Of a stretch of DNA of 64,000 nucleotides, positions 1,345 to 63,260 are shown one piece after another. The DNA comes from a virus. The position numbers were made by a program, and so were the translations under genes. The notes under the pieces were generated by a model, which was given only the letters and a program-made list of their open reading frames with translations, ran no database searches and had not been told where the DNA came from. Numbering within the stretch: the stretch's first letter is position 1; each line of letters starts with the position of its first letter. The stretch is taken from IMG/VR virus record IMGVR_UViG_3300045988_183789; one strand, given 5' to 3'.

Positions 1345-1487
1345 GGGATAGCTCCCTTCTGGCAATCAGTAATGGTTGCCAGTGTCTTGCAATGGTCACC
1401 ACCTCCACGTTGGTGCAAGACGGTAATGTACTGAAAGGCAGTATAGCTGAGAGTGACTCTGAAATATGTTCGCAAGGGAGTGATGTG

Positions 1488-18141: not shown

Positions 18142-18199
18142 GGTGCCCTATAATTCATCCAGAACAAAATTAACCCGGAGCAGAAAGGAGATGATAGAG

Positions 18200-18988
18200 A
18201 TGCTTATTCATATTTTTGGCGATACACATGGACCGGATGAGATTTTCAAAATCAATCCGAAACGGTTCCTTAACCGTGACATCACAAAAGATGATGCGAT
18301 TGTTGTTTGCGGAGACTTCGGATTTCCGTTCTTTCCGACAGACCGCATCCCGGCGGACGACCTCAAGACACTGGACATGCCGCAACACTGTATCAAGTCA
18401 GCGCGAGCGTACCAGATGTACACCGACTGGATGAAGTCTTTTCCTTGCAATATCCTCTTCATCGATGGTAACCACGATAACCACACCTTCTGGGCAGAGC
18501 AGCCTACTGAACGGTGGAACGGCGGCTTGATTCAACGCCTGCCGGAAGCACCGAATGTCATCCACCTGATGCGCGGCGAATACTACACGATTGATGGTAT
18601 GACTGTATGGTGTATGGGAGGTGCAGAGTCTATCGATAAAGCATACCGTACAGAAGGCGTCACTTGGTGGAGGGAAGAAGTCCCATCTCAGAAAGAGATG
18701 TGGCACGGTCTTGACGCATTGGATGAGCATGGGAATAAAGTAGACATCATCATGACGCACATGCTTCCACAGATGCTCATGCCAATCTATTTCAGAGACA
18801 TCAGCCCGATTCACGACCCGACTGGCGTATACCTTGATGAAATTTACCGCCGGGTGAAGTTTAAACAATGGTGTTGCGGCCACATGCACCAAGACATCGA
18901 TAAATCGATGTACAAGCTCAGAGTGCTGTACAACCAGATTGCGGAAATAAACACGGACGACTTTGGGAAAGAAGGTGATAACCAATGA
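18200..18988 (+). CDS. Calcineurin-like metallophosphoesterase
   Basis: RBS AAAGGAGA. Motifs HIFGDTHG and GNHDNH. Confidence 0.7.
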   Translation: MLIHIFGDTHGPDEIFKINPKRFLNRDITKDDAIVVCGDFGFPFFPTDRIPADDLKTLDMPQHCIKSARAYQMYTDWMKSFPCNILFIDGNHDNHTFWAEQPTERWNGGLIQRLPEAPNVIHLMRGEYYTIDGMTVWCMGGAESIDKAYRTEGVTWWREEVPSQKEMWHGLDALDEHGNKVDIIMTHMLPQMLMPIYFRDISPIHDPTGVYLDEIYRRVKFKQWCCGHMHQDIDKSMYKLRVLYNQIAEINTDDFGKEGDNQ

Positions 18989-19827
18989 GCGACATCTATG
19001 TGGCAGGAGATGTGCATGGGAACTACAAAGGTCTCATCGAATCCCTCATGGCCGCCGGATGGAATGAAGGAACCGACAAGCTCGTCTTCGTTGGTGATGT
19101 AGTAGACCGTGGCAAGGAAAACGCAAAGGTCGTCAACTTCATTACGGAACATCCAGATACAGTCCATCTCGTTCTTGGCAACCACGAATACGAACATAGG
19201 CAGATGCTTCGATACTATAAAGCACTCGCACAGTCTCCGACCGTCAGAAAGCTCGCAGCCTGGGTCTTCCTACACTACAAGCAAGGAGAGCACATCTTCA
19301 GAACAAAAGAAGAACTCGAAACGCTCAGATGCAGCATGGAGGAAAGAAAAAAGATTCTCGCCGCTAGACCCCATACGTTCGCTGGGTGGCAGAAGCTTTT
19401 TATTACCTACACACTCGCGTGGGAGAACGATGGGCTTTGGCAGATGGTCGTCTATCTGCTCGACAATATGTGTGGCACACCGTACGAAGCAGAACATACC
19501 ATCTATGAGTATCTGTCTGGTACGAAAAAAACGAGGGAAAGCTTTGAAACTACCTTTGAGAATCAAGCACAGGAACTCAACATCACGCCTCCGCCCGGTT
19601 CTCGATTCAAACAAATCGTGGTAACTCACAACAACCCGTTCGGTCGAGTCTTTGATTATGATAAAGACGAAATGTTGACCGGTCATCGGGATACGCTCTA
19701 TATTTTTGGACATATCCCTCATAAAGAAATCACTCGCATGGACAGACCCAACTCCGGTTGCACATACCTCGACATTGATACATCTCCATACGGAGTATCC
19801 GTCATTAAGCTGTCTAACTATCTCTAA
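18985..19827 (+). CDS. Metallophosphoesterase (PPP/ApaH-like)
   Basis: Motifs GDVHGN, GDVVDRG and GNHE. Confidence 0.7.
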   Translation: MSDIYVAGDVHGNYKGLIESLMAAGWNEGTDKLVFVGDVVDRGKENAKVVNFITEHPDTVHLVLGNHEYEHRQMLRYYKALAQSPTVRKLAAWVFLHYKQGEHIFRTKEELETLRCSMEERKKILAARPHTFAGWQKLFITYTLAWENDGLWQMVVYLLDNMCGTPYEAEHTIYEYLSGTKKTRESFETTFENQAQELNITPPPGSRFKQIVVTHNNPFGRVFDYDKDEMLTGHRDTLYIFGHIPHKEITRMDRPNSGCTYLDIDTSPYGVSVIKLSNYL

Positions 19828-35618: not shown

Positions 35619-36506
35619 ATGACTTCTGAACAGGTTCGTATCGCACTCACCGCCAATGCCGTTACTCGCTCGACCCGTACCGGCTTCGATTTTGAGGACC
35701 CCTGCGGCAAGACGCTGGACGAATTCACCAAGGGCGCTACGCTTCAGTGCCTGCGTGTTGCCCAGCAGATGCAGCAGCCTGGCTTTGAAAAGGTGCTGGC
35801 TGCCCAGATTTTCCCGTGCTACACCATCGCCAACTGGAACCAGACCAAGGTCATCTATGATTTCGGCAAGGATTTTCTGGAGCTGCTGATGGATACCGAT
35901 GACCTCACCATCCATCGCGAGGTGCTGGAGCGCCTGCCGTTCAAGAACTTCTATGTGCCTCTGTACAACAGCGTAGACTACTGCGGCATGTTCGTACATA
36001 TCGAGTTTGATACAAAGACGGATGACACCTTCGTTGGCATCGTCCTCGTGGGCCCGGTCCAGAACGAAAAGGAGAACTTCGCGTTCCTGTCTCTGCCCGC
36101 TTGGATTAAGGAGGGTCAGAGCCTGACGGAGGCGACTCGCAGCACGAAACAGTACATCGAAAAAGCATCTTCGACTCGCGATAAAGATGACATCACTATT
36201 CCTGAAACGCTGGACGCTATCCCGTCTGTTTACGGCGAAGGCACGCCCTATGTCCGCCTCGCAATGCTGTGTGCCTACTACCTTGCCAGCAAAGGCGCAG
36301 AGATTCGTCTGGACAGTCCGAAAAAGGACGAGCGTCCTGTCTTTACGTTCAAGGGCCAGACCAAGAAAGTCAATATCAAGACCTTCGTGGTGGGCCATTA
36401 TCTGATGGAGCGTTACAAGAAGGAAGCGAACGGTAAGGCTCCCACCTGGCGGCACTATTGGTGCGGCAATGGCCGCGAGCGCCGTGAGTGCAAGTTCTCC
36501 TTTTGA
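35619..36506 (+). CDS. Hypothetical protein
   Basis: RBS GGAGGA. Confidence 0.45.
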   Translation: MTSEQVRIALTANAVTRSTRTGFDFEDPCGKTLDEFTKGATLQCLRVAQQMQQPGFEKVLAAQIFPCYTIANWNQTKVIYDFGKDFLELLMDTDDLTIHREVLERLPFKNFYVPLYNSVDYCGMFVHIEFDTKTDDTFVGIVLVGPVQNEKENFAFLSLPAWIKEGQSLTEATRSTKQYIEKASSTRDKDDITIPETLDAIPSVYGEGTPYVRLAMLCAYYLASKGAEIRLDSPKKDERPVFTFKGQTKKVNIKTFVVGHYLMERYKKEANGKAPTWRHYWCGNGRERRECKFSF

Positions 36507-36988
36507 TTCCTATGGGTATCGTTGATATTTGCAGAGTGGCGCTGTTCTCCATAACGGCTATCCTTTTCGCTGCAAATGGTGTTTATAACTTGTATTTTGG
36601 GCGTAAAGCCTTCCAAGAAGTAACCTATTGCTGCGGCAAAAGAAAATACCTATCACCCGAAGATACTCTGAACCATACGGTACGAATCCTTGTCATTAGC
36701 TGTGTGATTTCAACGGCATTTGCTTTGTTGGTTTTGCGCTTAATTGAAGTCAATAAGGTCGAAGCTCAACTCATGCTGAACTACTGTTTAACTGTGTTTG
36801 TTTGTTTAGCGTTTGACATTTCGCTGCTGATGGTATCCGCAATTCCTCTTGCATTCGGGAAATTGGCGTCGGTCCGAAAGGTATTACCCATCTATACAAA
36901 GGTTATCTGGGCTGGAAAAGCAGGATGGTGCTTTGTATCTGCTATCGGGTTTACAAAGATGGCGATTCACTATCTAGCTGCACTGTGA
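36488..36988 (+). CDS. Multi-pass membrane protein. Start uncertain
   Basis: Four hydrophobic segments. Confidence 0.4.
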   Translation: MQVLLLIPMGIVDICRVALFSITAILFAANGVYNLYFGRKAFQEVTYCCGKRKYLSPEDTLNHTVRILVISCVISTAFALLVLRLIEVNKVEAQLMLNYCLTVFVCLAFDISLLMVSAIPLAFGKLASVRKVLPIYTKVIWAGKAGWCFVSAIGFTKMAIHYLAAL

Positions 36989-36998
36989 GGGAATGCCT

Positions 36999-37163
36999 AT
37001 GGGTACTAAGAACTATGTCGTTGATGACCGCTGCATTGTTCCGCCGGAAATCAAAATGCTGAGCGCTGCCGAACTGGCTGAAAAGATTGCAGAGTACGAG
37101 CAGGTCTTGCCGCCTCTAAAGCATAACGATGCGGAAATCAAACTACCTATCCATATAGAGTAA
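36999..37163 (+). CDS. Small protein, 54 aa
   Basis: RBS GAGGGAA lies 5 nt upstream of the ATG. Not in the supplied ORF track because it is under 60 aa. Confidence 0.35.
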   Translation: MGTKNYVVDDRCIVPPEIKMLSAAELAEKIAEYEQVLPPLKHNDAEIKLPIHIE

Positions 37164-37173
37164 AGGAGCTTTT

Positions 37174-38040
37174 ATGAGCACTGAACTTGTCGCTATTGAG
37201 CGCATCATTATCGGGAAAGGTGAGAAGGGTGCCGAGCAGGTACGTAAAGATTTGGCGCGATATTTGCGCCAGTTCCTCGATACCGCCAGCATCGAGTCCA
37301 TGAGTCTTAGCGCAATGGTCATCAAACTTGACGGGAAAACTGTTCTGGACATTCACGACAAGACCGGCGGGAAGGGGCTTGATGGTCTCGATACCAGCTG
37401 GCAGCATGCGTCCGAAACAGAAGAAGCTGTTTCTGGCATTCTTCGTGATGTGGACGTAGAAGCGTTTCTGTCTTACGGCATGATTCACTACTTCAGCCAC
37501 AGCATCTTCTACGGCTCTGCATTCTGGAGCGATGTCTTGCAGGATTGCGGGGCTGAATCGGTCCGGTATCAGGGCCTTGAATACTACGACGTGGACAGCC
37601 ATGTGTCGATGCTGACCTTTGATGGCAAGACGCTGTGCGACAGTCCCGATTATGTGTCGGAAGAAGCGGTAAAGGATATTCCTTTCTGGTTCTGCTACAC
37701 CTTCGAGATGGAGCTGGAAGCGGGAGATACCTTCACCGTTCAGCAGGTCGATAAGATGCTGGCTGCAGTTCAGTCCGTCAGGAGCGTCTTCGGCCGCGAG
37801 GAAGGCGATGCAGCAGATGTAGATGAGGGTTGCCTCTCTATCTGCACGAGCGTCACCCTCAAACCTAACCAGATTCAGGACTTTACAGCATTCCTCAAGA
37901 CGATGCTTGACATTGCAGAAGAGTCCGGCGGCTCGCTCAGCTATACGGCTGAGTTTGTGCCGATTCAGATGGATACTTTCGCTGCCATGATTCTGGACAT
38001 GGACAAAGATGGTATTGTGCCTCGATTCTTCAAGTTCTAA
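37174..38040 (+). CDS. Hypothetical protein
   Basis: RBS AAAGGAG. Confidence 0.45.
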   Translation: MSTELVAIERIIIGKGEKGAEQVRKDLARYLRQFLDTASIESMSLSAMVIKLDGKTVLDIHDKTGGKGLDGLDTSWQHASETEEAVSGILRDVDVEAFLSYGMIHYFSHSIFYGSAFWSDVLQDCGAESVRYQGLEYYDVDSHVSMLTFDGKTLCDSPDYVSEEAVKDIPFWFCYTFEMELEAGDTFTVQQVDKMLAAVQSVRSVFGREEGDAADVDEGCLSICTSVTLKPNQIQDFTAFLKTMLDIAEESGGSLSYTAEFVPIQMDTFAAMILDMDKDGIVPRFFKF

Positions 38041-38056
38041 TTCGGATTAGTGATAC

Positions 38057-38090
38057 GCAGCCGCTTCCTTCGGGAGGTGGCTGCTTTTTT
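38057..38090 (+). terminator. Rho-independent terminator
   Basis: GCAGCCGCTTCC-TTCG-GGAGGTGGCTGC followed by TTTTTT. Confidence 0.65.
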
Positions 38091-38105
38091 CGTATCTGCG
38101 AAAAT

Positions 38106-38134
38106 TTGATGAATTGTGCGAATTGCAGATAATA
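38106..38134 (+). promoter_or_regulatory. GCGAATTG-box promoter, copy b
   Basis: TTGATG aattGTGCGAATTGcag ATAATA. Confidence 0.5.
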
Positions 38135-38166
38135 AAAATCAGATATATATTGGGAGGGAAAATGAC

Positions 38167-39444
38167 ATGTTTCCGTTTTTCAAAAAGAAGCAAGCGCCCG
38201 CTAATGTTCCTGAAATCATACCGATTCAGGAAGAAGGCGGTGTCTGCATTGCAAAGTGCTGGACAGGAAAAGAGGATGCCGATATAGTCGTCAACATGAC
38301 TGACGCTTCCAAACATCAAAGCTCAGTCATCTCCATTGTCGGAAGCCACGGCCAGGGCAAGGATTTTACTGGCAAGTTGATTCTTTACCGCCTTTGCAAG
38401 CAAGGAGCACAAGCTACTATCCTAACGGATGGGTTGAGCCGTGAAGAGTACGGCTATATGTGCGACCAGCTTGGCGGTAAGAACGTGATTATAGGAGAAG
38501 AAAACTCACATATCAACTTGTTCGACATTCGCAAGCCGAAAGAAGGCTCCCGTAAGTGTTCCGTTCTAACAAGAAAAGTACAGGAACTGCTCACAGTGTT
38601 CAGAGCAATGTATCCTGAGATGACACCAGAGCAAGCGGGATTGCTTGATGCGTTACTCTACCGCCTTTATAAGGTCAAAGGCATCACCTATGACAATGCC
38701 AGTCTTCTCGTGGAAGGCTCAGACCAGTACAAAGAGTTCCCGACTATAGAAGACTTTTATACGACCATTAAGCTTGCACATCTGAAAGAACTTGATGACT
38801 TCGCAAACGTGCTTTCACAGTTTGTAGATGGACCTTATGGCTGGTTCAACCATAAGACGGATGTTGATTGGGATAGTCCTTTCCTTGTGCTGGACTTTAT
38901 GAAATACAGGGGACAAATCGAAAAAGACAGTACGGCCAAGGACTTTATGATGGCCTATTGCTTTGAAATCCTCAGCGAGCGTATGCAGAACGAGGCGGAC
39001 AAGAAGGCTATTCTGATGCGGGATGTATTCTTTGGCGAGAACCGTGACGTTATGAAAAATGCTCCGTTTATGCTGGAGCGTGACACCACTTTGAGCTGGA
39101 GCAAACACCTCTGCCAGAACGCGATGCCCTGTGACTGCACCGTAATCACCGTTACCAGCGTGTTTAACGACGGTATAGACGATGCGTTTCTCCATGAAAT
39201 CATGGCTGATTCAGATGTACAGGTATACCACAAAATATTCAGCCATTTGGTTCCCAATGTGGCAAAAGCATGCCACTTGAGCGAAAAGAACGCAAAATAC
39301 GTCTCAGAGCTTCAAAGGGGACATGTCATTATTTTTGCGGATGGTAAGTGGACATGGAGCGATGTGAAGGCTGATGATGAAGAATATAAGATGATGACCG
39401 AATATCCTTCTGACATCAGAGTCTATGGGAGGGACTGGCAATGA
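38167..39444 (+). CDS. Hypothetical protein
   Basis: RBS GGGAGGG. Contains GSHGQGKD, a degenerate P-loop-like motif that is not a canonical Walker A. Confidence 0.45.
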   Translation: MFPFFKKKQAPANVPEIIPIQEEGGVCIAKCWTGKEDADIVVNMTDASKHQSSVISIVGSHGQGKDFTGKLILYRLCKQGAQATILTDGLSREEYGYMCDQLGGKNVIIGEENSHINLFDIRKPKEGSRKCSVLTRKVQELLTVFRAMYPEMTPEQAGLLDALLYRLYKVKGITYDNASLLVEGSDQYKEFPTIEDFYTTIKLAHLKELDDFANVLSQFVDGPYGWFNHKTDVDWDSPFLVLDFMKYRGQIEKDSTAKDFMMAYCFEILSERMQNEADKKAILMRDVFFGENRDVMKNAPFMLERDTTLSWSKHLCQNAMPCDCTVITVTSVFNDGIDDAFLHEIMADSDVQVYHKIFSHLVPNVAKACHLSEKNAKYVSELQRGHVIIFADGKWTWSDVKADDEEYKMMTEYPSDIRVYGRDWQ

Positions 39445-39866
39445 ATATCGCTTTATTCGCTATCTCAACCTTCATTGTCATCATCTGTATCGGCATACCG
39501 GTAGCCAAGCATCCTCACTGGTTCAACACATACGAAGAGCAGGTTCAGGCAGCAAAAGATAAAGGTTACTGTGCTATGGCTACGCCTGTCAAAATCCGGA
39601 ACTTGCCGTATGACTCCAGTGAACCCACCTATAAGAACTACAACTATTCTGTCGTATATCAATTTGAGTTTGAAGGCAGGATATATACAAAGCGCCGCCA
39701 ACAGAATGACTACCCGGAGCCAAGGATGTTCTATTTTCCGAGCGGGAACCCCAAAAGAGCATTTTGCTGTAGAGAAGACCAGCCTCTGACACTTGGCAGC
39801 TGGATTTCGGTGCTTATGCTTGTTGCCGTTGGTATCGTATATCGAATTCTATCTATATTTGTATAA
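39441..39866 (+). CDS. Membrane protein
   Basis: Two TM segments. Confidence 0.45.
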   Translation: MNIALFAISTFIVIICIGIPVAKHPHWFNTYEEQVQAAKDKGYCAMATPVKIRNLPYDSSEPTYKNYNYSVVYQFEFEGRIYTKRRQQNDYPEPRMFYFPSGNPKRAFCCREDQPLTLGSWISVLMLVAVGIVYRILSIFV

Positions 39867-39879
39867 AGGACTTTCACCC

Positions 39880-40716
39880 ATGACTTTCCCAATGTTTCTT
39901 TTGCTGCTCACAGTTTCTATCGTATTCCTTCTTGGATTCATCTGGTACTTGGTTTATGAAAACAAGATGCAGCAGCTGGTCCTTACTACCAGTACGCGGC
40001 TTCATGCACTGATTGAGCTGAACGGAAAATATACCTTCTACGATGTTCCGGAGATGGTAACTCGCAGATGGCAACTTGATACAAAGCCAAAATATGACCA
40101 TTTTAACTTCGAGAAGAACGTCTTTATGCAAGTCAGTAAGGAACGAGAAGAATTTGAAACGCTGTTGCAGCTCACAAGAGAAAATGCCAACTTGATGAAC
40201 CAATACCTCCATGATTTTGATAATTTGCCTCCGTACTTCGACGAGACAGAAGATTATGAGCCTACATGGCGCTCAAAGATGTATGCGAGACTCGAACGCG
40301 ATGAAGTCAAGAAAGAAGAACGCAACTGTCCGACTCCTACAACAGAACTGCTCCTGCGCTGTGCCAAGACTTATACTTCACCGCAGGGGCGTCGAAACTA
40401 TGGGGACAGCCAGGTTTATACCGCGAGTGAGATTGAGACTCTTATAAACGAGTCCTATCAGAAGGATAAAGAAAAGGAAAGCAAGGAATACCAGCGGAAA
40501 GCCATGACACCGTCCTTGCGATATGACATTATGAAGCGCGATGGCTTTAAGTGTGTGCTTTGCGGCCGCACTCCGAAAGATGGCATCACGTTACATGTTG
40601 ACCACATCTTACCTGTATCTAAAGGCGGAAAGACTGTGCCGTCCAACCTGCGGACCCTTTGCAGCATCTGTAACATTGGCAAGAGTGACAAGTACGATGA
40701 AAACGGTCTAAATTGA
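39880..40716 (+). CDS. Membrane-anchored protein with a C-terminal HNH nuclease domain
   Basis: N-terminal TM helix. C-terminal DGFKCVLCGR ... HVDHILPVSKGG ... NLRTLCSICN matches the HNH CxxC...HxxH...N...CxxC motifs. Confidence 0.65.
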   Translation: MTFPMFLLLLTVSIVFLLGFIWYLVYENKMQQLVLTTSTRLHALIELNGKYTFYDVPEMVTRRWQLDTKPKYDHFNFEKNVFMQVSKEREEFETLLQLTRENANLMNQYLHDFDNLPPYFDETEDYEPTWRSKMYARLERDEVKKEERNCPTPTTELLLRCAKTYTSPQGRRNYGDSQVYTASEIETLINESYQKDKEKESKEYQRKAMTPSLRYDIMKRDGFKCVLCGRTPKDGITLHVDHILPVSKGGKTVPSNLRTLCSICNIGKSDKYDENGLN

Positions 40717-40730
40717 AAGAGGTTATTTCT

Positions 40731-41621
40731 ATGTACAACTACGGGAAGCCGGTTAACTTCGACGACTGGCTGATTGACCTGCCGGATGAGTTCTCGTTCT
40801 GGCTTGAGGACCAAATGGCTATGATAACGCCATTGGATATTGTGCTGATGGCAGTAGGCTTGCTGGTTATTGTCGGACTCATCTGGTTTTTTATCACGCG
40901 TCAAGCCAAGAAGAATGTGGAGCAGACAAGCAATATCCTCGAAGGGCTGCTGGAAATCAATCAGGGCTACGTGTTCTATGATGTCGATGCGGAAATCACG
41001 CTGCAGTATCCTCAGGATACGAAGGAAACTTATGAAAATGCTTCTTTTGACCGGCTCTTTATGAGCATCGTCCAGAAGAAAATTCCGGCATTTGAGGAGG
41101 TCTTCGGCTGGGCCAATAGCAATAATATCCAGTTTGGAATGTACAAAAAAGAACTCGAAGGCCTGCCCAACTGGACGGAGAAAGATGACGATTGCGGCCG
41201 CCGAGTGCCGTTTTGCCTCTATCACAAGTGGGAACAGAAGCTCGTGAACGATGCGGTGTATGGCACACCTGTCACACAGCCTGTCTTCCATGTGGTCAAG
41301 CAGTATACTCCGGCAAGAGGGAAAACACTCTCTGAGACCCGTACATATTCTATGGCAGAGGCCAAGGAGTTTGTCAGGCTTGCAAAGGAACACGAGGCAG
41401 AAAAGAAAAGACGGGCAGCAGCTCGCAAAGCCGCATCTGCCGAACTCCGTTACTCAGTCCTGCAGCGTGATGGGTTCCGCTGCACTCTCTGCGGCCGCTC
41501 ACCAACGGAGGGTGTGAGCCTTCATGTTAAGCCCATCATGCCGCTTCCTAAAGGCGAGAAGCCTACGGCGGATTATTACCGCACCGTCTGCAATGAATGT
41601 TTGGAGGTGAACCAGGTATGA
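40731..41621 (+). CDS. Paralog of the upstream HNH protein with a degenerate HNH motif
   Basis: Same architecture, TM then C-terminal DGFRCTLCGR. The catalytic HVDHI is replaced by HVKPI, so it is probably inactive. Confidence 0.55.
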   Translation: MYNYGKPVNFDDWLIDLPDEFSFWLEDQMAMITPLDIVLMAVGLLVIVGLIWFFITRQAKKNVEQTSNILEGLLEINQGYVFYDVDAEITLQYPQDTKETYENASFDRLFMSIVQKKIPAFEEVFGWANSNNIQFGMYKKELEGLPNWTEKDDDCGRRVPFCLYHKWEQKLVNDAVYGTPVTQPVFHVVKQYTPARGKTLSETRTYSMAEAKEFVRLAKEHEAEKKRRAAARKAASAELRYSVLQRDGFRCTLCGRSPTEGVSLHVKPIMPLPKGEKPTADYYRTVCNECLEVNQV

Positions 41622-41818
41622 TTGAGACAAAATCAGGCATCAACCTTCGCATCAATGGCACAGTCATCTTTGCTTCCAACAATGTATCCTACTGGTTCAT
41701 TAACGGCCGACTAATTCGGAGTGATGGCGAAATCGAAGGAGAAGCCAAAACAATGAAAGACGCAGTTGCAATCGTACTTGCAAAGTATGGTGGCAGGAAG
41801 GAGACAATCAATGGATGA
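41618..41818 (+). CDS. Small protein, first member of a tandem paralog pair
   Basis: RBS GGAGGTGA. 66 aa. Confidence 0.45.
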   Translation: MIETKSGINLRINGTVIFASNNVSYWFINGRLIRSDGEIEGEAKTMKDAVAIVLAKYGGRKETING

Positions 41819-42008
41819 AATCAGGACCAATAGCGGAGTAACGCTTCGAGTATCTAATGGCAACACAATCTATACCTCCGATGGCAAAGCCTTCTGGCGC
41901 TGCGGCTCGACGCTTGTGGGTAACGGGACCGTCATCAGCTACAAATGTAAGTCGCCGGAAGAAGCGCTGGATATGGTTGCGGCACTTTATAACGGCCGTG
42001 CCAAATAA
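41811..42008 (+). CDS. Small protein, second member of the pair
   Basis: RBS AAGGAGA. 65 aa. Shares an S/T-G-(I/V)-(N/T)-L-R-(I/V)-(N/S)-x-N and ...AL core with the upstream protein. Confidence 0.45.
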   Translation: MDEIRTNSGVTLRVSNGNTIYTSDGKAFWRCGSTLVGNGTVISYKCKSPEEALDMVAALYNGRAK

Positions 42009-42013
42009 AATAC

Positions 42014-42051
42014 GCTGTCACCTCGAACTCCGGGGTGGCAGCCTTCTTTTT
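42014..42051. terminator. Bidirectional terminator hairpin between convergent genes
   Basis: GCTGTCACC ... GGTGGCAGC followed by CTTCTTTTT. Confidence 0.5.
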
Positions 42052-42054
42052 GTC

Positions 42055-42489
42055 TTACAGGGCATGGTGGCACACATGCTCAAAATCTACGAGCAGTTCC
42101 TTCGTCGCTTTCTGCACATACGCCGAAGCCGACTCATCATGGCTTTTTTCAGATGAAAGTATAAGGCACGGACGGTTCATGGCGGTCGAACCGCTACAGT
42201 GGCAAGAGAGTAGCTCTTCTCCAAACTCATAATTGAGGATAGCAGTAAGGCATTCGCCCATCAAGGCACAATCGTCATCCTTTGCCAAAAGCCTATCCGC
42301 TTCATCGTAGTTAATGCGGCCGTTATCGAGACAAATACGGTCAAGGAACACCCGAACATTATCCGAAGCGGTCATTGCATCTATAGTCTGATGATGATTC
42401 TCAAGGAAAATGTAAAATATCAGCTTTTCGATTTCATCCAGGTAAAAGCCAAAACCAGTGATACGGGTCTTAGTATCAGTTTGTGTCAT
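42055..42489 (-). CDS. Hypothetical protein. One of only four minus-strand genes in the window
   Basis: Reverse-complement RBS AAGGATGAGG. Confidence 0.45.
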   Translation of the reverse strand: MTQTDTKTRITGFGFYLDEIEKLIFYIFLENHHQTIDAMTASDNVRVFLDRICLDNGRINYDEADRLLAKDDDCALMGECLTAILNYEFGEELLSCHCSGSTAMNRPCLILSSEKSHDESASAYVQKATKELLVDFEHVCHHAL

Positions 42490-42679
42490 AAAAAACGCCT
42501 CATCCTTCTTTTCTACTTGCATTTATAACACATGGAATACAAAAATGCGAGATTTGACGCTGTTTATTAAAAGCGTGATAACAATTTCTAAAGAAACCAT
42601 GTACATGTCGTAAGGTTCCTTGTTCATCCGTTCGAATTGAGTATCATTGTAGGTAGACTAAAGTAAAGGAGAAACGCAC

Positions 42680-43291
42680 ATGAGTGAGTTCAACCCGAAA
42701 AACGACCCACAGGTCCAGGCATACATTGCCTTCGTGGAAGACTTCAAAGAGTTTATCCGCAGAGAGGATAGAGTCGGCAAAGACCAGTACAAGCTGGTCA
42801 ATCTCTATGGTGAGAAGGGCTTGGATGACCCTGATGCCAAGATTGTGACTTTGCAGGACCAGAAAGCTCAGCTGCTTGCTGCGACCAGCTGTGACCTTGC
42901 GAAAGCAACGCTTTGGCTGTATTACTTCCGCGACAAGTTCGCAGACATCGAGCTTGTTGACATCAGTGGGGAAGACTACACTTCCTATCTGAAGCAAATC
43001 ATCCATAAGCTGAACGATGATACAAGTCCTCTCTACCTGGATGCGTGGGACATGCTTATTCGCCTTGTGGCAGAAGACTGTATGCCGGATGCCTATGTTG
43101 ACGACAAGAAGAAGTGGCAACTGGTATACACCAACATGTACTGGAATGTCCACCTGGCGATGAAGTCTCTCAAGACGGGTGGTTCCATCAAACGCATGGT
43201 GGACAAGCTGCCGAAGGATGCCGATAAAATCGGGAACCTGGCTTTCAAGTATTTCAATGATGCACTCATTGCCTACGAGATGCAGCCTTGA
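42680..43291 (+). CDS. Hypothetical protein, paralog A of the gene at 44488
   Basis: RBS AAAGGAGA. N-terminal FxxFI...G...YKLVNLY shared with 44488. Confidence 0.5.
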   Translation: MSEFNPKNDPQVQAYIAFVEDFKEFIRREDRVGKDQYKLVNLYGEKGLDDPDAKIVTLQDQKAQLLAATSCDLAKATLWLYYFRDKFADIELVDISGEDYTSYLKQIIHKLNDDTSPLYLDAWDMLIRLVAEDCMPDAYVDDKKKWQLVYTNMYWNVHLAMKSLKTGGSIKRMVDKLPKDADKIGNLAFKYFNDALIAYEMQP

Positions 43292-43316
43292 ACATCCGTG
43301 CGAATTGAATAGAATA
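43288..43316 (+). promoter_or_regulatory. GCGAATTG-box promoter, copy c
   Basis: TTGAAC atccGTGCGAATTGaat AGAATA. Confidence 0.5.
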
Positions 43317-43336
43317 AGACATGTAAGCTAAATAAA

Positions 43337-43364
43337 AGAGCGGCTTGACCGCTCTTTCTTTTTA
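43337..43364 (+). terminator. Leader hairpin plus T-tract between promoter c and the gene
   Basis: AGAGCGG-CTTGA-CCGCTCT followed by TTCTTTTT, 23 nt before the start codon. Confidence 0.5.
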
Positions 43365-43386
43365 CTACGCAGAAAGAGGTTTCGGC

Positions 43387-44049
43387 ATGAACAAAAACAT
43401 CCATTATACCGCAACGCACATCACCTGTGAGTTGGAAAACGACATCTACAATTACATCGAAAGCCAGCTGGCAAAGAAGCTCGTACAAAAAGCTGCCGCC
43501 GGGCGCAAGCAGTATTTCTATTATGGCAACGACTCGGACAGCACGGCCATGCAGGTTGCGATGACCAATGAAGAAGCAAAGCACCTGGCTGAATCTTCTG
43601 TCTTGCTTGCCGAGCGGCTCATGGTGCTGTACAACATGACGGCTGGTTTCAAGAACATCGAGATGCAGGCAACCACCGGCAAGCCGAAAGAAGCTGCCTG
43701 GCCCAAGGTCTACAATACGATGGTTGCGAAAGGTTCGCCCTTGTATGATGAGCCGCTCCTCGGCCGCGTTTACAACCTGCCAAGCTACTATGCTTTGAAG
43801 AAGTACGACCGCCAGCTGATGTCCGACATGTATGAAGCCATGATGATGGTTGTGTACGATGCGGCCGTCGAGCTCAAAGGCCAGTGGGATACAAACGGCA
43901 AGATGACCTTGCAGAACCCTCTGTTCGCACATACCGCCGTGACCGTCTTCAACGGTCTGCTTGGTGCCACGACGATGCGCTACAAGGTTCTCAAAGATAC
44001 GCCCGCCGGGGTTATGGAGGGAATGCACATTGAATCTGCTACGGTTTAA
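43387..44049 (+). CDS. Hypothetical protein
   Basis: RBS AAAGAGG. Confidence 0.45.
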   Translation: MNKNIHYTATHITCELENDIYNYIESQLAKKLVQKAAAGRKQYFYYGNDSDSTAMQVAMTNEEAKHLAESSVLLAERLMVLYNMTAGFKNIEMQATTGKPKEAAWPKVYNTMVAKGSPLYDEPLLGRVYNLPSYYALKKYDRQLMSDMYEAMMMVVYDAAVELKGQWDTNGKMTLQNPLFAHTAVTVFNGLLGATTMRYKVLKDTPAGVMEGMHIESATV

Positions 44050-44473
44050 GAAAGACGACCCGACCTACGGGTTTCTGAGCAATTATTATCCTTGCTCCTT
44101 TGTGCTGGATGGAATCTACTACCTCAACGCGGAAGCAGCATTCCAAGCCCAGAAGGTCCCGATGGAGGAGAGACGTCAGTTTGCCTGCCTCATGCCGAAC
44201 GAGGCGAAGAAACTCGGCCGCCGGGTCCAACTTTCTCCAGATTGGGACGAAGTTCGAGACGAAGCGATGCGCCGGGTGCTGTATGCCAAGTTCAGCCAGA
44301 ACGAGGAGTTCAAACAGCGACTGCTCGCTACAGGCGACCGGCACATTATCGAAGACACGACCGGCTGGCACGATAACTATTGGGGGGATTGCCAGTGTCC
44401 CAGATGCAAGGGCGTTCACGGTCAGAACAAACTGGGCATGATGCTCGAAGAAATCAGGACCAAATTAAGATAA
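44030..44473 (+). CDS. NADAR-domain (YbiA/DUF1768) ADP-ribose-processing hydrolase
   Basis: RBS GGAGGGAA lies 6 nt upstream of TTG. YGFLSNYYPCSF ... YLNAEAAFQAQK matches the NADAR signature. Confidence 0.65.
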   Translation: MNLLRFKKDDPTYGFLSNYYPCSFVLDGIYYLNAEAAFQAQKVPMEERRQFACLMPNEAKKLGRRVQLSPDWDEVRDEAMRRVLYAKFSQNEEFKQRLLATGDRHIIEDTTGWHDNYWGDCQCPRCKGVHGQNKLGMMLEEIRTKLR

Positions 44474-44487
44474 AAGGAGAACTCAAC

Positions 44488-45249
44488 ATGAGCGAACAGA
44501 ATACGATTGCCGAAGAGCAGCAGAAAGCCTACGAGGCCCTGGCGCACGACTTTACCGACTTCATCAAGGCAAAGGTACGCGCAGGGGAGAATAGCTACAA
44601 GCTGGTGAACATTTACAAGCAGTATGACATCGATGCTGACAGCTTCGATACCGTCAAACTGGATGATGCCAAAGCCGAAAAGCTGGCGCTCATCTGCATG
44701 GACCTTGCCAACGCTATCCTGTGGCTTCACTGCCACCGCGATGAGTTCAAAGATACCGAGTTCATTGAGGTCGTGAACGGTAACTACCCGAAGTATGTCG
44801 ATTCTGAAGGCAAACATCCTCTCTTGATTTCTGGAAATCTGAGTAACTATCCTGTCAACTCTCTCAAGTCCCTGCTTCGAGGTCTGACAACGACTATCGA
44901 CCAGTATGAACAGCCGCAGCATCCGAAAGCGCAAAAGGATGCTGCCCATATCAATAAGCACGCCATGCACCTTGTGAGACTGTATTACACAGCATTTGAC
45001 ATTCTGGAGCAAGGACGCATCATCACCCGTCGGGACAAGGAGCACGAAGAACTGCTGGCTATCCGCAACGGCAAGTATATGCGTGAGGATGGGTCGTATG
45101 CACCCGAATTCTTCGAGTCTGTGGACCAGCTTGAAACAAGATTTCAGCGAGACGTGAAGAAAACGGAACTCCCGGCAAAACCCGATTTTGCGAAAATCGA
45201 GGAGTTGCTCGTAGAAATCAACAAATCCTATCTCCATCGAATTATGTAA
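44488..45249 (+). CDS. Hypothetical protein, paralog B of the gene at 42680
   Basis: RBS AAAAGGAGA. Confidence 0.5.
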   Translation: MSEQNTIAEEQQKAYEALAHDFTDFIKAKVRAGENSYKLVNIYKQYDIDADSFDTVKLDDAKAEKLALICMDLANAILWLHCHRDEFKDTEFIEVVNGNYPKYVDSEGKHPLLISGNLSNYPVNSLKSLLRGLTTTIDQYEQPQHPKAQKDAAHINKHAMHLVRLYYTAFDILEQGRIITRRDKEHEELLAIRNGKYMREDGSYAPEFFESVDQLETRFQRDVKKTELPAKPDFAKIEELLVEINKSYLHRIM

Positions 45250-45460
45250 AACCGCAAAGAAATGCGGTGATAGCAAACAAAAATAACGTAGAACCAATAG
45301 TGGCAGAATATACAATGCTGAATATATGCAAAATTCTGTGTTATGTAATTTTGCCGTAGCAGCCCGTGTGACTGCGTAAGATTGAACGTCCATCCGTAAA
45401 TCACGGGTGGGCGTTATTTTTGTACCCGCAAAACTCAAAACAAAATACGATAAAAAGTGC

Positions 45461-45488
45461 TTGACCATCTGTGCGAATTGCCTACAAT
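45461..45488 (+). promoter_or_regulatory. GCGAATTG-box promoter, copy d
   Basis: TTGACC atctGTGCGAATTGcc TACAAT. Confidence 0.55.
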
Positions 45489-45513
45489 TGATATTGTAAG
45501 ATAAATAATTGTA

Positions 45514-45555
45514 CCCCGACGGAACACCATGCGTGCCTGCCGGGGTATTCTTTTT
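45514..45555 (+). terminator. Leader hairpin plus T-tract between promoter d and the helicase gene
   Basis: CCCCGACGG ... CTGCCGGGG followed by TATTCTTTTT. Confidence 0.45.
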
Positions 45556-45586
45556 GCGTTAATACGTATTCTGGAGGATTCAAACC

Positions 45587-48415
45587 ATGACTCTCGCTAA
45601 CCTGTCTACTGAGCAACAGGACCTTGTACGCCTGGCTCTCGCAGGCAGAAATATACTCTGTGACGCTTGCATCGGCAGCGGTAAAACATCGACCATCAAC
45701 GTGTTGTGTAACGAGTTTGACGCCTCCAAACAGATTCTGTACCTGACCTATAACCGTCTGCTAAAACTCGACGCGCAAGAAAAAATCCTAAACGACAATG
45801 TTGTCGTCCAGAACTACCACGGCTTTGCTTCAAAACTCCTCTATCGGCACGGAGTTCGTAATATTGGACAGGGCGAGCAAATTAAGAAGGCGCTCGATTT
45901 GCATGTTCCGGTCGGTCGCTATGACGTGCTCATCATCGATGAGTACCAAGATATTAACGAAGAAATCTCTCGAATGCTTGAATATATTAAGGAAGAAAAC
46001 CCCACCATGCAAATTATTGCGGTGGGGGATATGGCGCAGAAAATCTACGACACCACATCTTTGGACATCTGGAACTTCATCAACAAGTTCCTCGGCAAAC
46101 ACACGCAGGTCAACTTTACCCAATGCTTCCGCTTGTCCCACGACTTGGCCGAGCGCCTTGGCACTATCTGGAATAAGGAAATCAACGGAGTCAACGAGAA
46201 CTGCAAAGTCAAGTCCATGACGAAGGATGAGGTCATCGAGTACCTCAACGATTTGGACCCGAAGAACGTCCTATGCCTTGGCGCTCGTACCGGCCAGATG
46301 GCCGCAGTTTTGAATGCCTTGGAAGAGCGCCCCGATAACCTTTACGACAAAAAACATGTTTATGCCAGCATCAAGGACAACGACGGCGAAAAAAGCGTAG
46401 CTCCGAACAGCAATGTGGGCATCTTCACAACATTCGACGGCAGCAAGGGCATGGAACGTCCTATCTGCGTGGTCTTCGATTTCACCGAGGATTACTGGGC
46501 AACCCGTATGCGTCAGCCGCTGACTCGCTACGAAATCATGCGCAACCTCTTTTGCGTAGCTGCGAGCCGTGGCAAGCAGGAGGTCATCTTCGTCAAACCC
46601 GATAAGCGTAGCCTCGTGAGCGACAAGACACTGATGACCCCTGTCAAGACTCGCACCACCTTTAAGGACAAATTCGACATCAGTGAAATGTTCGATTTCA
46701 AGTTCGATGAAGATGTGGATGCGTGCTACAACCTTATCACGGCCAAGCAGGTATTCCAACAAGACCAGACGGAAATCGAAATCAAGCACTCCGATGCGAT
46801 GATTGACCTGTCGCCCTGCATTGGCATCTACCAGCAGGCAAACTTCTTCGATTTTTACGACATCGACAGCGCTATCGCCTTCTTCATGTACCTACACAAG
46901 GACAAGATGGCGAAGGTTCCAACCACTTGGAAGTCCGTTGAACAAAAAGTTCTGTTTCTTACAATGCTGATGACGAGCCAGGACCGTTATATCAAGCAGG
47001 TAGAACTGCCTTTCATCACGCCGGAACAGGCAAAAGCGCTGACTGACCGCCTCTCTACGATGTTTACCCATGATGAAGAGGTTCAGGAACGCGCAGAACT
47101 AAACATTGTGGTAGAACAGGATGAACTGAAGCAGCCTGTCACGTCGCTTATCGTTAGCGGTATGGCCGATGTAGTCAAGGACAACAAGGTCTATTATCTG
47201 AAGTTCGTATCAAACCTCGCACACAAGCACTTCATCCAGTGCGCCTGCTATATGCTCGCCACAGGCCTTCCTACCGGCGTTCTTTGGAACATCCGGGATA
47301 ACACGATGTATGAAGTCGAAATTCCGGACCGCACGGCTTTTCTGAATGCGGTAGTGAAGTGCATCACCAAGGGCGTCTATACGGAAGCTCTCGCCTACAA
47401 TCTGGAGAAAGACTACTCCCAGAGCCTTGACACGATTCTCGACCGTGTTATGTCCGACACTTCGCTGCCTGAATTTGATACCGGCGGCAACATTGTTGAG
47501 GAAAAGCCGCAGGACGAAGGTGTTGCTATTATCAAGCAGGGTGAGCAGTATGTCATCCTGGATGCGGGAACTCGCTCTATCGTGGGCGGTACGGCAGTAA
47601 ACGGCTATGACACAATTCTGGCCGCCTGCGAAGCATACGTGAAACAGAATAAGAAAGCTACGGAAGAATCGGTCAATAAGAAAGAACTTCTCCATGTCAT
47701 TGAACAGTGGCTTGATGACCATGCAGAGTTCGAACATCAGATGTCTTGCGTGGCAGTCGATATTGAGAACCATGTCGGCCCCTATTCGGGTTATTCGAAC
47801 TTCTCTACTTATGTGGTTCGCAAGATGCTTAAAGACTGCGGCTTGGTCATCGACTTCAATGAGCGTCAGCTTCTCAAGGTCTGGAAAGTCCGCGAGAAGA
47901 AGCGTCCAAAGCCTGTTACCCAGTACAGCCCGGCTCAAGCCTCGAAACAGGTGGTTTTGAATCCGGCTGATAGTTTCGAGCAAATGCTGAACAGCTTGCA
48001 GAGCATGGGTGTGGATGTCAAAGTTGCAGAAGAAACCGCAACCGAACCCTATGACTTCTCCCAGTACAAGCGTCTGCCGCCGGAGCGTAAGACGTATGAC
48101 TCTGAACCTGTCGGCTGGTGGAAGGACGGAGAAGAGCAGTATAAGAAAGAAAAAGAAGCGTTTCCGGCCGAATATCGAGTTATTCGCTCCTCCAAGCTAT
48201 CTAAACCCGGTGATGTACGCTATGTCATCATGGAAGAGGATTCCAACACTGTGCTGGATGATGCAAACGGGTATGGGTACAAATCCGTTCAGGCTGCGCA
48301 CAAGGGCTATGGCTATAAGCGGCGCAACGGTGGCAGTTTTGGTTCCAAGAAGAAAGAAAAGAGTGAAGCAAAGCCTCAGACCACGGGCGAGCAGCTTTCG
48401 TTTGGAGGTCTGTGA
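45587..48415 (+). CDS. Superfamily-1 (UvrD/PcrA-like) helicase with a ~600-aa C-terminal extension
   Basis: RBS GGAGGA. Walker A CIGSGKTST and motif II LIIDEYQD. Confidence 0.65.
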   Translation: MTLANLSTEQQDLVRLALAGRNILCDACIGSGKTSTINVLCNEFDASKQILYLTYNRLLKLDAQEKILNDNVVVQNYHGFASKLLYRHGVRNIGQGEQIKKALDLHVPVGRYDVLIIDEYQDINEEISRMLEYIKEENPTMQIIAVGDMAQKIYDTTSLDIWNFINKFLGKHTQVNFTQCFRLSHDLAERLGTIWNKEINGVNENCKVKSMTKDEVIEYLNDLDPKNVLCLGARTGQMAAVLNALEERPDNLYDKKHVYASIKDNDGEKSVAPNSNVGIFTTFDGSKGMERPICVVFDFTEDYWATRMRQPLTRYEIMRNLFCVAASRGKQEVIFVKPDKRSLVSDKTLMTPVKTRTTFKDKFDISEMFDFKFDEDVDACYNLITAKQVFQQDQTEIEIKHSDAMIDLSPCIGIYQQANFFDFYDIDSAIAFFMYLHKDKMAKVPTTWKSVEQKVLFLTMLMTSQDRYIKQVELPFITPEQAKALTDRLSTMFTHDEEVQERAELNIVVEQDELKQPVTSLIVSGMADVVKDNKVYYLKFVSNLAHKHFIQCACYMLATGLPTGVLWNIRDNTMYEVEIPDRTAFLNAVVKCITKGVYTEALAYNLEKDYSQSLDTILDRVMSDTSLPEFDTGGNIVEEKPQDEGVAIIKQGEQYVILDAGTRSIVGGTAVNGYDTILAACEAYVKQNKKATEESVNKKELLHVIEQWLDDHAEFEHQMSCVAVDIENHVGPYSGYSNFSTYVVRKMLKDCGLVIDFNERQLLKVWKVREKKRPKPVTQYSPAQASKQVVLNPADSFEQMLNSLQSMGVDVKVAEETATEPYDFSQYKRLPPERKTYDSEPVGWWKDGEEQYKKEKEAFPAEYRVIRSSKLSKPGDVRYVIMEEDSNTVLDDANGYGYKSVQAAHKGYGYKRRNGGSFGSKKKEKSEAKPQTTGEQLSFGGL

Positions 48416-62454: not shown

Positions 62455-62530
62455 GCTTCTGTAGCTCAGATGGCAGAGCGGCTGTTTTGTAAGCAGCGGG
62501 TCGCAGGTTCGAGCCCTGTCGGAAGCTCCA
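62455..62530 (+). tRNA. tRNA-Thr (anticodon TGT)
   Basis: Cloverleaf folded by hand. Acceptor GCTTCTG / CGGAAGC, anticodon loop TTTGTAA, T-loop GGTTCGAGCCC, encoded CCA. Confidence 0.8.
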
Positions 62531-62631
62531 CTGGTTTTCATCGTTCCTCCGTTGAAATCCAAAATCCCGCTTGATGAATCGTAACTTCTTGATACGATGC
62601 TATACACACATCTTGCGGGCTATGTCACCAT

Positions 62632-62694
62632 AAGACAGCCTCCTCGCGGCGGTGACGGTAACACGGGTATTGAGCTCCCCGTGGCAAATGTCTT
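62632..62694 (+). other. Structured-element family copy 4
   Basis: AAGACAGCCTCCTCGCGGCGG ... GGCAAATGTCTT. Confidence 0.4.
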
Positions 62695-62700
62695 ATTTCT

Positions 62701-62776
62701 GGGTCGTTAGCTCAGTCGGCAGAGCGCTTGACTGTTAATCAAGATGTCACAGGTTCGAGCCCTGTACGACCCTCCA
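62701..62776 (+). tRNA. tRNA-Asn (anticodon GTT)
   Basis: Acceptor GGGTCGT / ACGACCC, anticodon loop CTGTTAA, T-loop GGTTCGAGCCC, encoded CCA. Confidence 0.8.
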
Positions 62777-62961
62777 TATACCGAATATCAAGTGTTGTAA
62801 GTGTCATCCCGACACACATCACAACTACTATAGTGCTACATACCCTCACTTGATAGACGGTAATAACAACCTCGGAGAATGTGCATTGTAGCTGCTTGCA
62901 GCACATCATACTACACCAGTATAGTTCTACACATCCTTGCGCAATCTCCGAGAATCCCTCA

Positions 62962-63029
62962 CAAGACAGCCTCCGCGTGGCGAGGGATGGACAACGCAAG
63001 TTTTGAAGGTTCTTGCGGCCAATGTCTTG
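62962..63029 (+). other. Structured-element family copy 5
   Basis: CAAGACAGCCTCCGCGTGGCGAGGGATGGACAAC ... GGCCAATGTCTTG. Confidence 0.4.
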
Positions 63030-63077
63030 TTATTGACACTTTGAAGGTTCTTGCGGCCAATGTCTTGTTATTGACAC
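63002..63077. repeat. 38-bp perfect tandem duplication abutting the tRNA-Met 5' end
   Basis: TTTGAAGGTTCTTGCGGCCAATGTCTTGTTATTGACAC x2. Confidence 0.8.
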
Positions 63078-63149
63078 GGGGTATAGCAATGGTAGCTTAC
63101 CAGCCTCATACGCTGGTGGTTGTGGGTTCAAGTCCCATCCCCGTATCCA
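63075..63149 (+). tRNA. tRNA-Met (anticodon CAT). C1-A72 mismatch suggests an initiator-type tRNA
   Basis: Acceptor CACGGGG / CCCCGTA with a C1/A72 mismatch, anticodon loop CTCATAC, T-loop GGTTCAAGTCC, encoded CCA. The anticodon stem lacks three consecutive G-C pairs, so initiator versus elongator is ambiguous. Confidence 0.7.
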
Positions 63150-63183
63150 TCGTCTCGGCCGCGACGCTAAATCGGTCATATAT

Positions 63184-63260
63184 GGCTCGTTAGTTCAGAT
63201 GGTTAGAACGCCAGCCTGTCACGCTGGAGGTCGCCGGTTCGAGTCCGGCACGAGTCGCCA
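63184..63260 (+). tRNA. tRNA-Asp (anticodon GTC)
   Basis: Acceptor GGCTCGT / ACGAGTC, anticodon loop CTGTCAC, T-loop GGTTCGAGTCC, encoded CCA. Confidence 0.8.

Follow-up and report, generated by a model that had tools for sequence, protein, structure and literature searches.

A large family of predicted membrane-anchored HNH proteins and a catalytically dead paralogue maintained on a common mobile element of the human gut

Four consecutive genes at positions 39880-42008 of the IMG/VR virus record IMGVR_UViG_3300045988_183789, referred to here as A, B, C and D, raise the question of whether an HNH nuclease, a paralogue devoid of catalytic residues and two small paralogous proteins act together as one system or simply share a transcription unit. 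Throughout this study, the window denotes the whole 64,000-nucleotide stretch of DNA that was analysed, with positions counted from its first letter. A preliminary description of the window had speculated that the four genes constitute a toxin/immunity or exclusion-type system. The comparisons presented below separate the four genes from one another, and what emerges is a large, uncharacterised family of tethered HNH proteins with a new middle domain, together with a selected dead paralogue that is fixed in a common gut element.

The paralogous HNH proteins and their family

Gene A (39880-40716, plus strand) encodes a 278-residue protein with a predicted transmembrane (TM) helix at approximately residues 3-30, a middle domain at approximately 36-157 (window 39985-40350) and an extended HNH domain at 158-278, the catalytic motif HVDHILP of which occupies residues 239-245 (window 40594-40614, plus strand). 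The preliminary description was right that this motif is retained: the protein matches Pfam HNH with 45.9 bits (cut-off 21.4) and HNH_5 with 46.6 bits (cut-off 27.5), D241-H242, N256 and N265 are present together with the zinc cysteines 225/228/261/264, and the beta-beta-alpha-metal fold with its zinc-binding Cys4 site can be recognised. In the AlphaFold 2 (AF2) model, which has a predicted local distance difference test (pLDDT) score of 94.4, a long helix (residues 3-37) is followed by the middle domain, built of helices packed against a three-stranded sheet (residues ~39-180), and then by the HNH domain. Residues 165-271, comprising a beta hairpin with a YTSPxGRN motif and the HNH core, correspond to a wider module that is also found in soluble phage and plasmid HNH proteins. 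The only strongly hydrophobic segment lies at the extreme N-terminus, the isoelectric point (pI) is 5.0 for the middle domain and 9.1 for the HNH part, and the ratio of nonsynonymous to synonymous substitution rates (dN/dS) is 0.03-0.12. A Pfam scan detected no secretion or delivery domain. Outside the HNH region, no match was obtained in a profile search of PDB sequences or in a search of the BFVD viral structures. A is thus apparently an active HNH nuclease, predicted from its sequence to be membrane-tethered and to face the cytoplasm.

With A as the query, a word-indexed search retrieved 791 proteins, mostly 270-300 amino acids long and alignable from end to end, for which the sole name, where any was given, was 'HNH endonuclease'. 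The family, defined here through alignments as a TM helix followed by a middle domain and an HNH domain (TM-mid-HNH), was extended by a profile of the middle domain, which recovered 834 cluster representatives (50% identity, E <= 0.001) among 1.84 billion; the middle domain was combined with an intact Asp-His HNH domain in 90 of the 122 newly seen representatives, or about three quarters. A genome scan placed full-length members in Eubacterium ramulus, Oscillospiraceae, Lachnospiraceae, Christensenella, Gastranaerophilales, Izemoplasmatales, Saccharibacteria, Actinomycetes and others, so that the family spreads over Clostridia, Saccharibacteria, Actinomycetes, Gastranaerophilales and Izemoplasmatales. 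This large family has no name in Pfam, NCBIfam or PADLOC, and no description of it was found in the literature on membrane-anchored or transmembrane HNH nucleases.

Domains and topology were scored in 97 members. Pfam HNH was matched by 92 of them, and D241, H242, N256 and N265 (A numbering) are near-invariant across the family. The middle domain, of about 120 residues, carries the conserved positions S38, N47, F53, K69, N102, Y109, E139 and P153; both A and B align to it, and N102, Y165 and G170 are invariant in the active members and in the B clade alike. A Pfam family was assigned to this domain in 0 of the 97 members, and no relative of it was found in the PDB. Lys and Arg residues are more frequent after the TM helix than before it in 95 of the 97 proteins (4.3 vs 0.76), which under the positive-inside rule places the bulk of the protein in the cytoplasm and the N-terminus outside. 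Independent support for this topology comes from domains located in front of the helix, namely a peptidoglycan-binding PG_binding_1 domain in variant P0354, which scores above the cut-off with 37 bits, and, in another variant, a weak SH3_3 domain.

The C-terminal part of these proteins is considerably less uniform. Some variants place two or three copies of the middle domain ahead of a single HNH domain, and others (P0304, P0389, P0392, P0397, P0410 and P0344) lack a nuclease, their TM helix and one, two or three middle domains being followed by a coiled coil, a conserved 'ATKGHIYS' motif and a SHOCT-like tail (E ~1e-5, just under the cut-off). The existence of variants lacking any nuclease shows that the anchor and the middle domain have a role that is independent of cleavage. 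In P0372 (loci L112 and L113), found in two sequencing runs, the TM helix and middle domain are joined to a UvrD-like helicase with 49% identity, over 591 residues, to the helicase encoded at 45587-48415 of the window, which lies 3.6 kb downstream of D. Through this natural fusion, the A/B family is connected with the UvrD-like helicase family, and the variation of the C-terminal output among all these variants identifies the anchor plus middle domain as the constant part. As a separate observation, a helicase of the same type also lies about 1.9 kb downstream of an A-like gene in L001-L003.

Gene B (40731-41621, plus strand) encodes 296 residues with an acidic N-terminus of 35 residues predicted to lie outside, a predicted TM helix at approximately 37-59, a middle domain and a pseudo-HNH domain. 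The preliminary description had assigned an N-terminal TM helix to both proteins; each does have one hydrophobic segment, that of B being set back behind the acidic stretch. Its view of A and B as tandem paralogues is borne out by a BLASTP alignment with 29% identity over 264 residues (E 6e-40), as is its recognition that B carries HVKPIMP (residues 265-271, window 41523-41543, plus strand) at the position of the catalytic motif. The Asp-His pair is replaced by Lys-Pro, the structural Asn by Tyr and the metal-binding Asn by Leu, with all four zinc cysteines (251/254/287/290) kept. No Pfam HNH match was obtained for B, PHROG HNH matches were weak (~1e-5), and its middle domain matched nothing in PADLOC, PHROGs or NCBIfam. 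The pI is 4.5 for the middle domain and 9.5 for the C-terminal HNH-like part.

The B family is small, comprising 19 matches, none of which has a Pfam HNH domain. Clade members that possess the C-terminal domain show K/Q-P or Q-A, Y/F and L/M at the catalytic sites and always keep the Cys4 site. The dN/dS of B is 0.20 against an orthologue with 92% identity and 0.14 against one with 59% identity, the pseudo-HNH part being more relaxed (0.35). In a neighbour-joining tree, the B clade forms a long branch outside all active members, to which B is 23-31% identical; its best match among them is A, only marginally (143 vs 140 bits). Considering this long outside branch, the adjacency of A and B does not stem from a recent tandem duplication, and an origin of B as a recent copy of A is ruled out. 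Purifying selection on all four genes (dN/dS 0.03-0.20) further indicates that A to D are real genes and not chance open reading frames (ORFs). B is therefore an old, catalytically dead gene under purifying selection, a resident of the element family that works without A.

Occurrence of the four genes on the element and elsewhere

Near-identical copies of the locus were found on contigs of 230-270 kb in many human-gut metagenomes (L099-L108 and L114-L140); the locus is carried by a mobile element of about 240 kb that is common in such metagenomes, and protein C is indexed in 1650 blocks of the searched collection. IMG/VR classes the relatives as viral contigs, yet conjugation-type genes are present in the window. 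When the region 36000-46000 was compared by megablast with curated phage and plasmid collections, no match was obtained.

B was examined in 44 places (the window, L008-L013, L099-L108 and L114-L140), with an intact A beside it in three and without A in 41. In most close relatives, the segment corresponding to window 39877-40643, which includes codons 1-255 of A, is swapped for 7 bp and the last 23 codons of A remain; in one relative, the last 41 codons remain instead. These remnants lie in frame at the 3' end of the gene and are 95-96% identical to it, and their two lengths indicate that A has been deleted at least twice. Truncated alleles of A are also in circulation, and in elements with a B of about 59% identity both A and a deletion scar are missing. 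A is accordingly an optional cargo gene, accessory on the element and subject to frequent gain and loss.

Presence or absence at one precise site among near-identical elements could also be expected if A were a selfish, homing-type HNH gene that inserted beside B, its patchiness then reflecting gain by homing. Free-standing HNH genes in phages are often mobile, and many phage HNH genes were among the tblastn matches in the phage collection. Against such an origin, the alleles lacking A are shown by their in-frame remnants of 23 and 41 codons to be deletions and not empty target sites, the anchor and the 120-residue middle domain are common to hundreds of chromosomal relatives at unrelated loci, and one relative keeps the same housekeeping surroundings in many samples. 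On account of the deletion scars, a homing insertion at this site was rejected, no precise intact target site being found, and homing as an account of A is extremely unlikely.

Beyond this element, A relatives with 50-54% identity on related elements stand alone, and full-length relatives in L001-L007 have no B-like, C/D-like or other conserved neighbour. At 52 genomic loci with a full-length A relative, no recurrent neighbour family and no adjacent second member were detected, and among 150 proteins flanking A relatives, no Pfam or PADLOC family occurred more than three times. The stand-alone occurrence at these 52 loci and in L001-L007 indicates that the A family needs no immunity protein.

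The two small genes follow B directly. Gene C (41618-41818, plus strand, 66 residues) has a start codon that overlaps the stop codon of B (ATGA) and belongs to a small-protein family specific to this group of elements; its paralogue D (41811-42008, plus strand, 65 residues) overlaps it by 8 nt. That C and D are small paralogues was correctly recognised at the outset (32% identity over 62 residues, E 2e-10), and the proposed shared core G-x-x-L-R-(I/V)-x-N-G-T-(V/I) is approximately right, although a one-residue indel is needed to align it. Both genes are under purifying selection (dN/dS 0.03-0.10). Their family comprises at least 228 unannotated small proteins, usually encoded in tandem sets of two or three. 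In relatives read with wide flanks, C/D-type genes were found 0.8-3.3 kb downstream of B behind unrelated genes; in another relative, no B lay within 5 kb of them, and at most IMG/VR loci no C/D-type gene was present within 3 kb of B. C and D are co-transcribed with B and are not functionally tied to the HNH proteins.

These observations bear directly on the module envisaged in the preliminary description, in which A would be a toxic nuclease neutralised by B, with C and D as small partners or as immunity proteins. All four genes are indeed adjacent, tightly packed and co-transcribed, pairs of active and dead paralogues are a known route to an inhibitor, and the retention of B, C and D after the loss of A would fit 'orphan immunity'. 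However, A-family genes occur alone at the 52 genomic loci and in L001-L007, elements with the ~59%-identical B have never been seen with A, C/D-type genes lie apart from B or have none within 5 kb, B is not a recent copy of A, and A lacks a secretion or delivery domain. The preliminary description had itself named absence of co-conservation as telling against its proposal, and the four genes, including the A-B pair that occurs together in three of the 44 places, are not co-conserved. A toxin/immunity or exclusion module built of all four genes is thus very improbable, whereas an exclusion or defence role for A alone, as a stand-alone gene, is possible.

A possible role at the membrane

The structural and evolutionary description given above is, taken by itself, held with good confidence. 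The mechanism proposed here for A, B and the C/D pair is more tentative and falls somewhat short of being probable. A would be a self-contained nuclease that needs no partner or immunity protein. Its membrane anchor would hold it away from the chromosome, and what it would cut is DNA emerging on the inner side of the membrane, for instance from an injecting phage or an incoming plasmid. By analogy with the defence protein SNIPE, the middle domain together with the variable outside segment would act as an adaptor or sensor, and the acidic character of the middle domain in A makes a protein-binding adaptor or sensor more likely than a DNA clamp. B is an ancient member that has lost all three catalytic positions and retained the anchor, the middle domain and the basic zinc-ribbon scaffold; it would be a non-cutting membrane protein, for which the retained basic scaffold suggests binding of DNA or of a partner protein without cleavage.

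SNIPE, the one tested system that follows such a logic, has an N-out TM helix, then a middle domain and, at the C-terminus, a nuclease. It becomes toxic only if deprived of its anchor, and it cuts phage DNA in the course of injection (PMC13190303). The likeness between A and SNIPE (PD-lambda-1) extends to several features: both are single polypeptides with no partner gene; in both, a short and variable outside N-terminus precedes a single TM helix, behind which come the middle domain and, at the C-terminus, a cytoplasm-facing nuclease; and the N-termini of SNIPE homologues are diversified, including envelope-binding modules, as are those of the A family with its PG_binding_1 and SH3_3 variants. 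The architecture and the predicted topology of A are compatible with a membrane location and with cutting of entering DNA. The differences are equally clear. The nuclease is of the HNH type in A and of the GIY-YIG (T5orf172) type in SNIPE, DUF4041 was detected in 0 of the 97 A-family members (E <= 1), and the A family occurs mainly in Gram-positive gut bacteria. Since both the nuclease and the middle domain differ, A is not a homologue of SNIPE.

Other known systems resemble the locus in narrower respects. The best sequence and structure matches of A are to free-standing HNH nucleases of the McrA, GVE2-HNH and Cas9-IscB HNH type (PF01844, PF14279), with which it shares the catalytic module, the Cys4 zinc site, the Asp-His base and the Asn ligands; these proteins are soluble and equipped with DNA-recognition or guide-RNA domains, unlike A with its membrane anchor and a middle domain that has no solved relative. 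A weak PADLOC match to PtuB of Septu (3.4e-7, residues 193-275) is limited to the HNH core, and no PtuA-type ATPase partner is present. A Septu-like (PtuAB) pairing of A with the ATPase encoded upstream in the same operon was considered and rejected, that ATPase having no PADLOC match and the PtuB match covering the HNH core only. As in colicins and pyocins, an HNH DNase gene stands beside genes for small proteins; A, by contrast, lacks delivery and translocation domains, has no conserved immunity gene and is predicted to be anchored in the membrane of its own producer. With regard to B, KwaB of the Kiwa system, which stops DNA entering at the membrane and does not cut it (PMC12904381), shows that DNA binding there can be functional in a non-cutting protein. 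It might serve as a model of a membrane-associated protein that handles incoming DNA without cleavage. KwaB and B have no kinship in sequence or fold, however, and KwaB pairs with a KwaA sensor.

Several observations weigh against the proposed mechanism. The DUF4041 domain of SNIPE is basic and DNA-binding and the middle domain of A is acidic (pI 5.0), which makes the SNIPE analogy architectural only. The flank of A itself behind its TM helix is weakly basic, with one Lys/Arg in 15 residues. One sub-lineage of B lacks the C-terminal domain, its B-like proteins stopping after the middle domain, so that DNA binding by the pseudo-HNH part may be dispensable. By tblastn, no full-length family member was detected in the phage (50,697) or plasmid (72,556) collections, in which only the HNH core or the 165-271 module was matched, and owing to this absence the family cannot be connected with a system that has been tested. 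For every family member, nuclease activity, membrane location and substrate are predictions. Finally, the neighbours of A-family genes are mostly housekeeping genes, with restriction and other defence genes scattered among them, and one A relative is fixed between the genes for enolase and an ABC transporter in many samples.

The genomic context of the family bears on a cellular role unrelated to conflict, in which these proteins would act at the membrane in, for example, clearing or processing of chromosomal DNA at the septum or in the course of DNA uptake, and the element would merely carry a copy. Many members lie among genes for Sua5, GyrB, HrcA, SpoIVA or enolase, and the taxonomic spread is broad; moreover, as no family exceeds three occurrences among the 150 flanking proteins, defence genes are not a consistent neighbour. 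Patchy distribution, the ready loss of A on the element and the swapping of output domains, which is more typical of conflict systems, speak against this role, as does the lack of a conserved operon partner that would tie the family to division or competence genes. We consider a cellular role unlikely, though by no means negligible.

The maintenance of B may alternatively reflect counter-defence. B would then be a dead mimic of host membrane HNH nucleases that occupies their membrane site or poisons their oligomers and thereby shields the DNA of the entering element. Its losses are restricted to the catalytic residues, with the anchor, middle domain and zinc scaffold kept under purifying selection; it is stable in the element family in which A is optional; cargo of anti-defence type is encoded nearby (an AcrVA2-like protein at 35619-36506 and a NADAR-domain protein at 43961-44473); and active members are common on the chromosomes of gut Clostridia, which are possible hosts. 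On the other hand, the defence role of the active family is itself inferred, an identity of 23-31% to active members is low for a mimic that co-assembles with them, and some lineages lack the C-terminal domain of B. In addition, neither a relaxase, in Pfam scans of 20 large ORFs of the window, nor an oriT was found that would show this region to enter the recipient first. Such a decoy function of B is distinctly unlikely. A bolder combination would make TM-mid-HNH proteins a new and widespread class of single-gene immunity that cuts entering DNA, equivalent to SNIPE but with an HNH nuclease and an unrelated sensor or adaptor of new fold. B, which the element always carries, would then serve as a dominant-negative decoy and put such nucleases of the host out of action upon entry of the element into a new cell. 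This combination is a long shot.

Spatial discrimination between self and non-self by a membrane-tethered nuclease has so far been shown for SNIPE. If A-type proteins do cut DNA at the membrane, this principle would extend to a second, unrelated protein architecture and reach Gram-positive gut bacteria, in which such defences have been little studied. The middle domain is of interest in its own right, being confidently predicted and without a solved relative in a family that numbers 834 or more clusters (50% identity). B, conserved on a prevalent large extrachromosomal element of the gut, offers a clean case for studying the role of a nuclease scaffold after cutting has been lost.

Operon organisation and surrounding cargo

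Genes A to D are the last four of six genes that lie on one strand with short gaps or overlapping stop and start codons and with recognisable ribosome-binding sites, in the order VirB4-like ATPase, two-TM protein, A, B, C and D. The gap between A and B is 14 nt and the overlaps are 4 nt between B and C and 8 nt between C and D. Upstream, a terminator-like hairpin with a 12-bp stem and a T run (38057-38084, plus strand) closes the preceding unit, and a promoter-like site, TTGATG-16-GATAAT (38106-38133, plus strand), follows it and includes the element-specific motif TGTGCGAATTGCAGATAAT at 38115-38133. Downstream, a second terminator-like hairpin, also with a 12-bp stem and a T run (42014-42042, plus strand), lies 6 nt past the stop codon of D. 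Judged by these signals, A to D are part of a six-gene operon between two strong hairpin terminators that mark its boundaries.

The first gene (38167-39444, plus strand) encodes a VirB4-like ATPase of 425 residues that comprises the C-terminal P-loop part only; it matches NCBIfam conju_CD1110 below the cut-off (1.6e-21), has no PADLOC match, and its relatives measure 424-425 residues. It probably starts at ATG 38167, behind a GGGAGGG ribosome-binding site, the mechanical ORF start being GTG 38116. Between otherwise close elements, this ATPase is just 67% identical. The product of the second gene (39441-39866, plus strand) has 141 residues, carries a hydrophobic segment at either terminus and matches no family; in some relatives it is shortened to 115 residues. 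A paralogue with 41% identity is encoded a few kilobases away in related elements (L012 9528-9935 and L013 4495-4992), preceded by the same promoter stretch of about 65 nt. In L008 and L009, the ~65-nt promoter stretch stands immediately 5' of B.

The pattern YGTGCGAATTG-N5/6-AAT, to which the motif at the operon promoter belongs, has seven copies in the window (30085, 30974, 38115, 43297, 45470, 54432 and 57480, all on the plus strand) against 0.23 expected by chance. Most copies are situated shortly 5' of ORF starts, and the genes behind them include those for the flotillin and the UvrD-like helicase as well as the A-D operon. The recurrence of this promoter-like motif ahead of several element genes suggests a common regulon, perhaps under the control of an element-encoded factor.

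The operon might form one machine, in which the ATPase, the two-TM protein, A/B and C/D would act jointly in conjugative DNA processing or in entry exclusion at a mating channel. The genes constitute a single transcription unit with translational coupling, share their promoter motif with the helicase and flotillin operons, and reside in a window that also encodes a type IV coupling protein (4658-6829, E 3e-49) and a VirB4/TraG-like ATPase (9799-12507). Yet relatives with the ~59%-identical B have no ATPase or two-TM gene within 3 kb of it, the A family is found overwhelmingly away from conjugation genes, and the gene order around B is highly variable. A joint machine of this kind is therefore quite improbable.

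Apart from the coupling protein and the VirB4/TraG-like ATPases, the Pfam scan of 20 large ORFs of the window revealed an M23 peptidase (1392-3275), a Y-family polymerase and the flotillin. The helicase encoded at 45587-48415 is 942 residues long and shows a weak PD-(D/E)XK match. No match in PADLOC, PHROGs or NCBIfam was obtained for the flanking genes, the two-TM protein, C or D. The AcrVA2-like and NADAR proteins lie on opposite sides of the operon, the former being identified by Pfam PF26125 in a relative with 100% identity. In place of this cargo, relatives carry a PIN/PhD pair, an IS605 TnpB, a PLD-type nuclease, a TIR protein or a VWA protein, and this exchange of accessory genes marks the surroundings of the operon as a variable accessory island. 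In the lineage whose B is about 91% identical, an additional gene encoding 59 residues with a CPTC motif, which is missing from the window and not paralogous to C or D, is inserted between B and C (L099 3800-3979; also L103-L106 and L108). Elsewhere in the window, two genes for calcineurin-like metallophosphoesterases (18089-18988 and 18985-19827) overlap by 4 nt and may be tandem paralogues or an SbcD-like split, and four tRNA genes occupy the right end (62455-63260). The sole minus-strand gene of the neighbourhood (42055-42522, 155 residues, no family match) converges on the operon terminator and is present in all close relatives with 84% identity.

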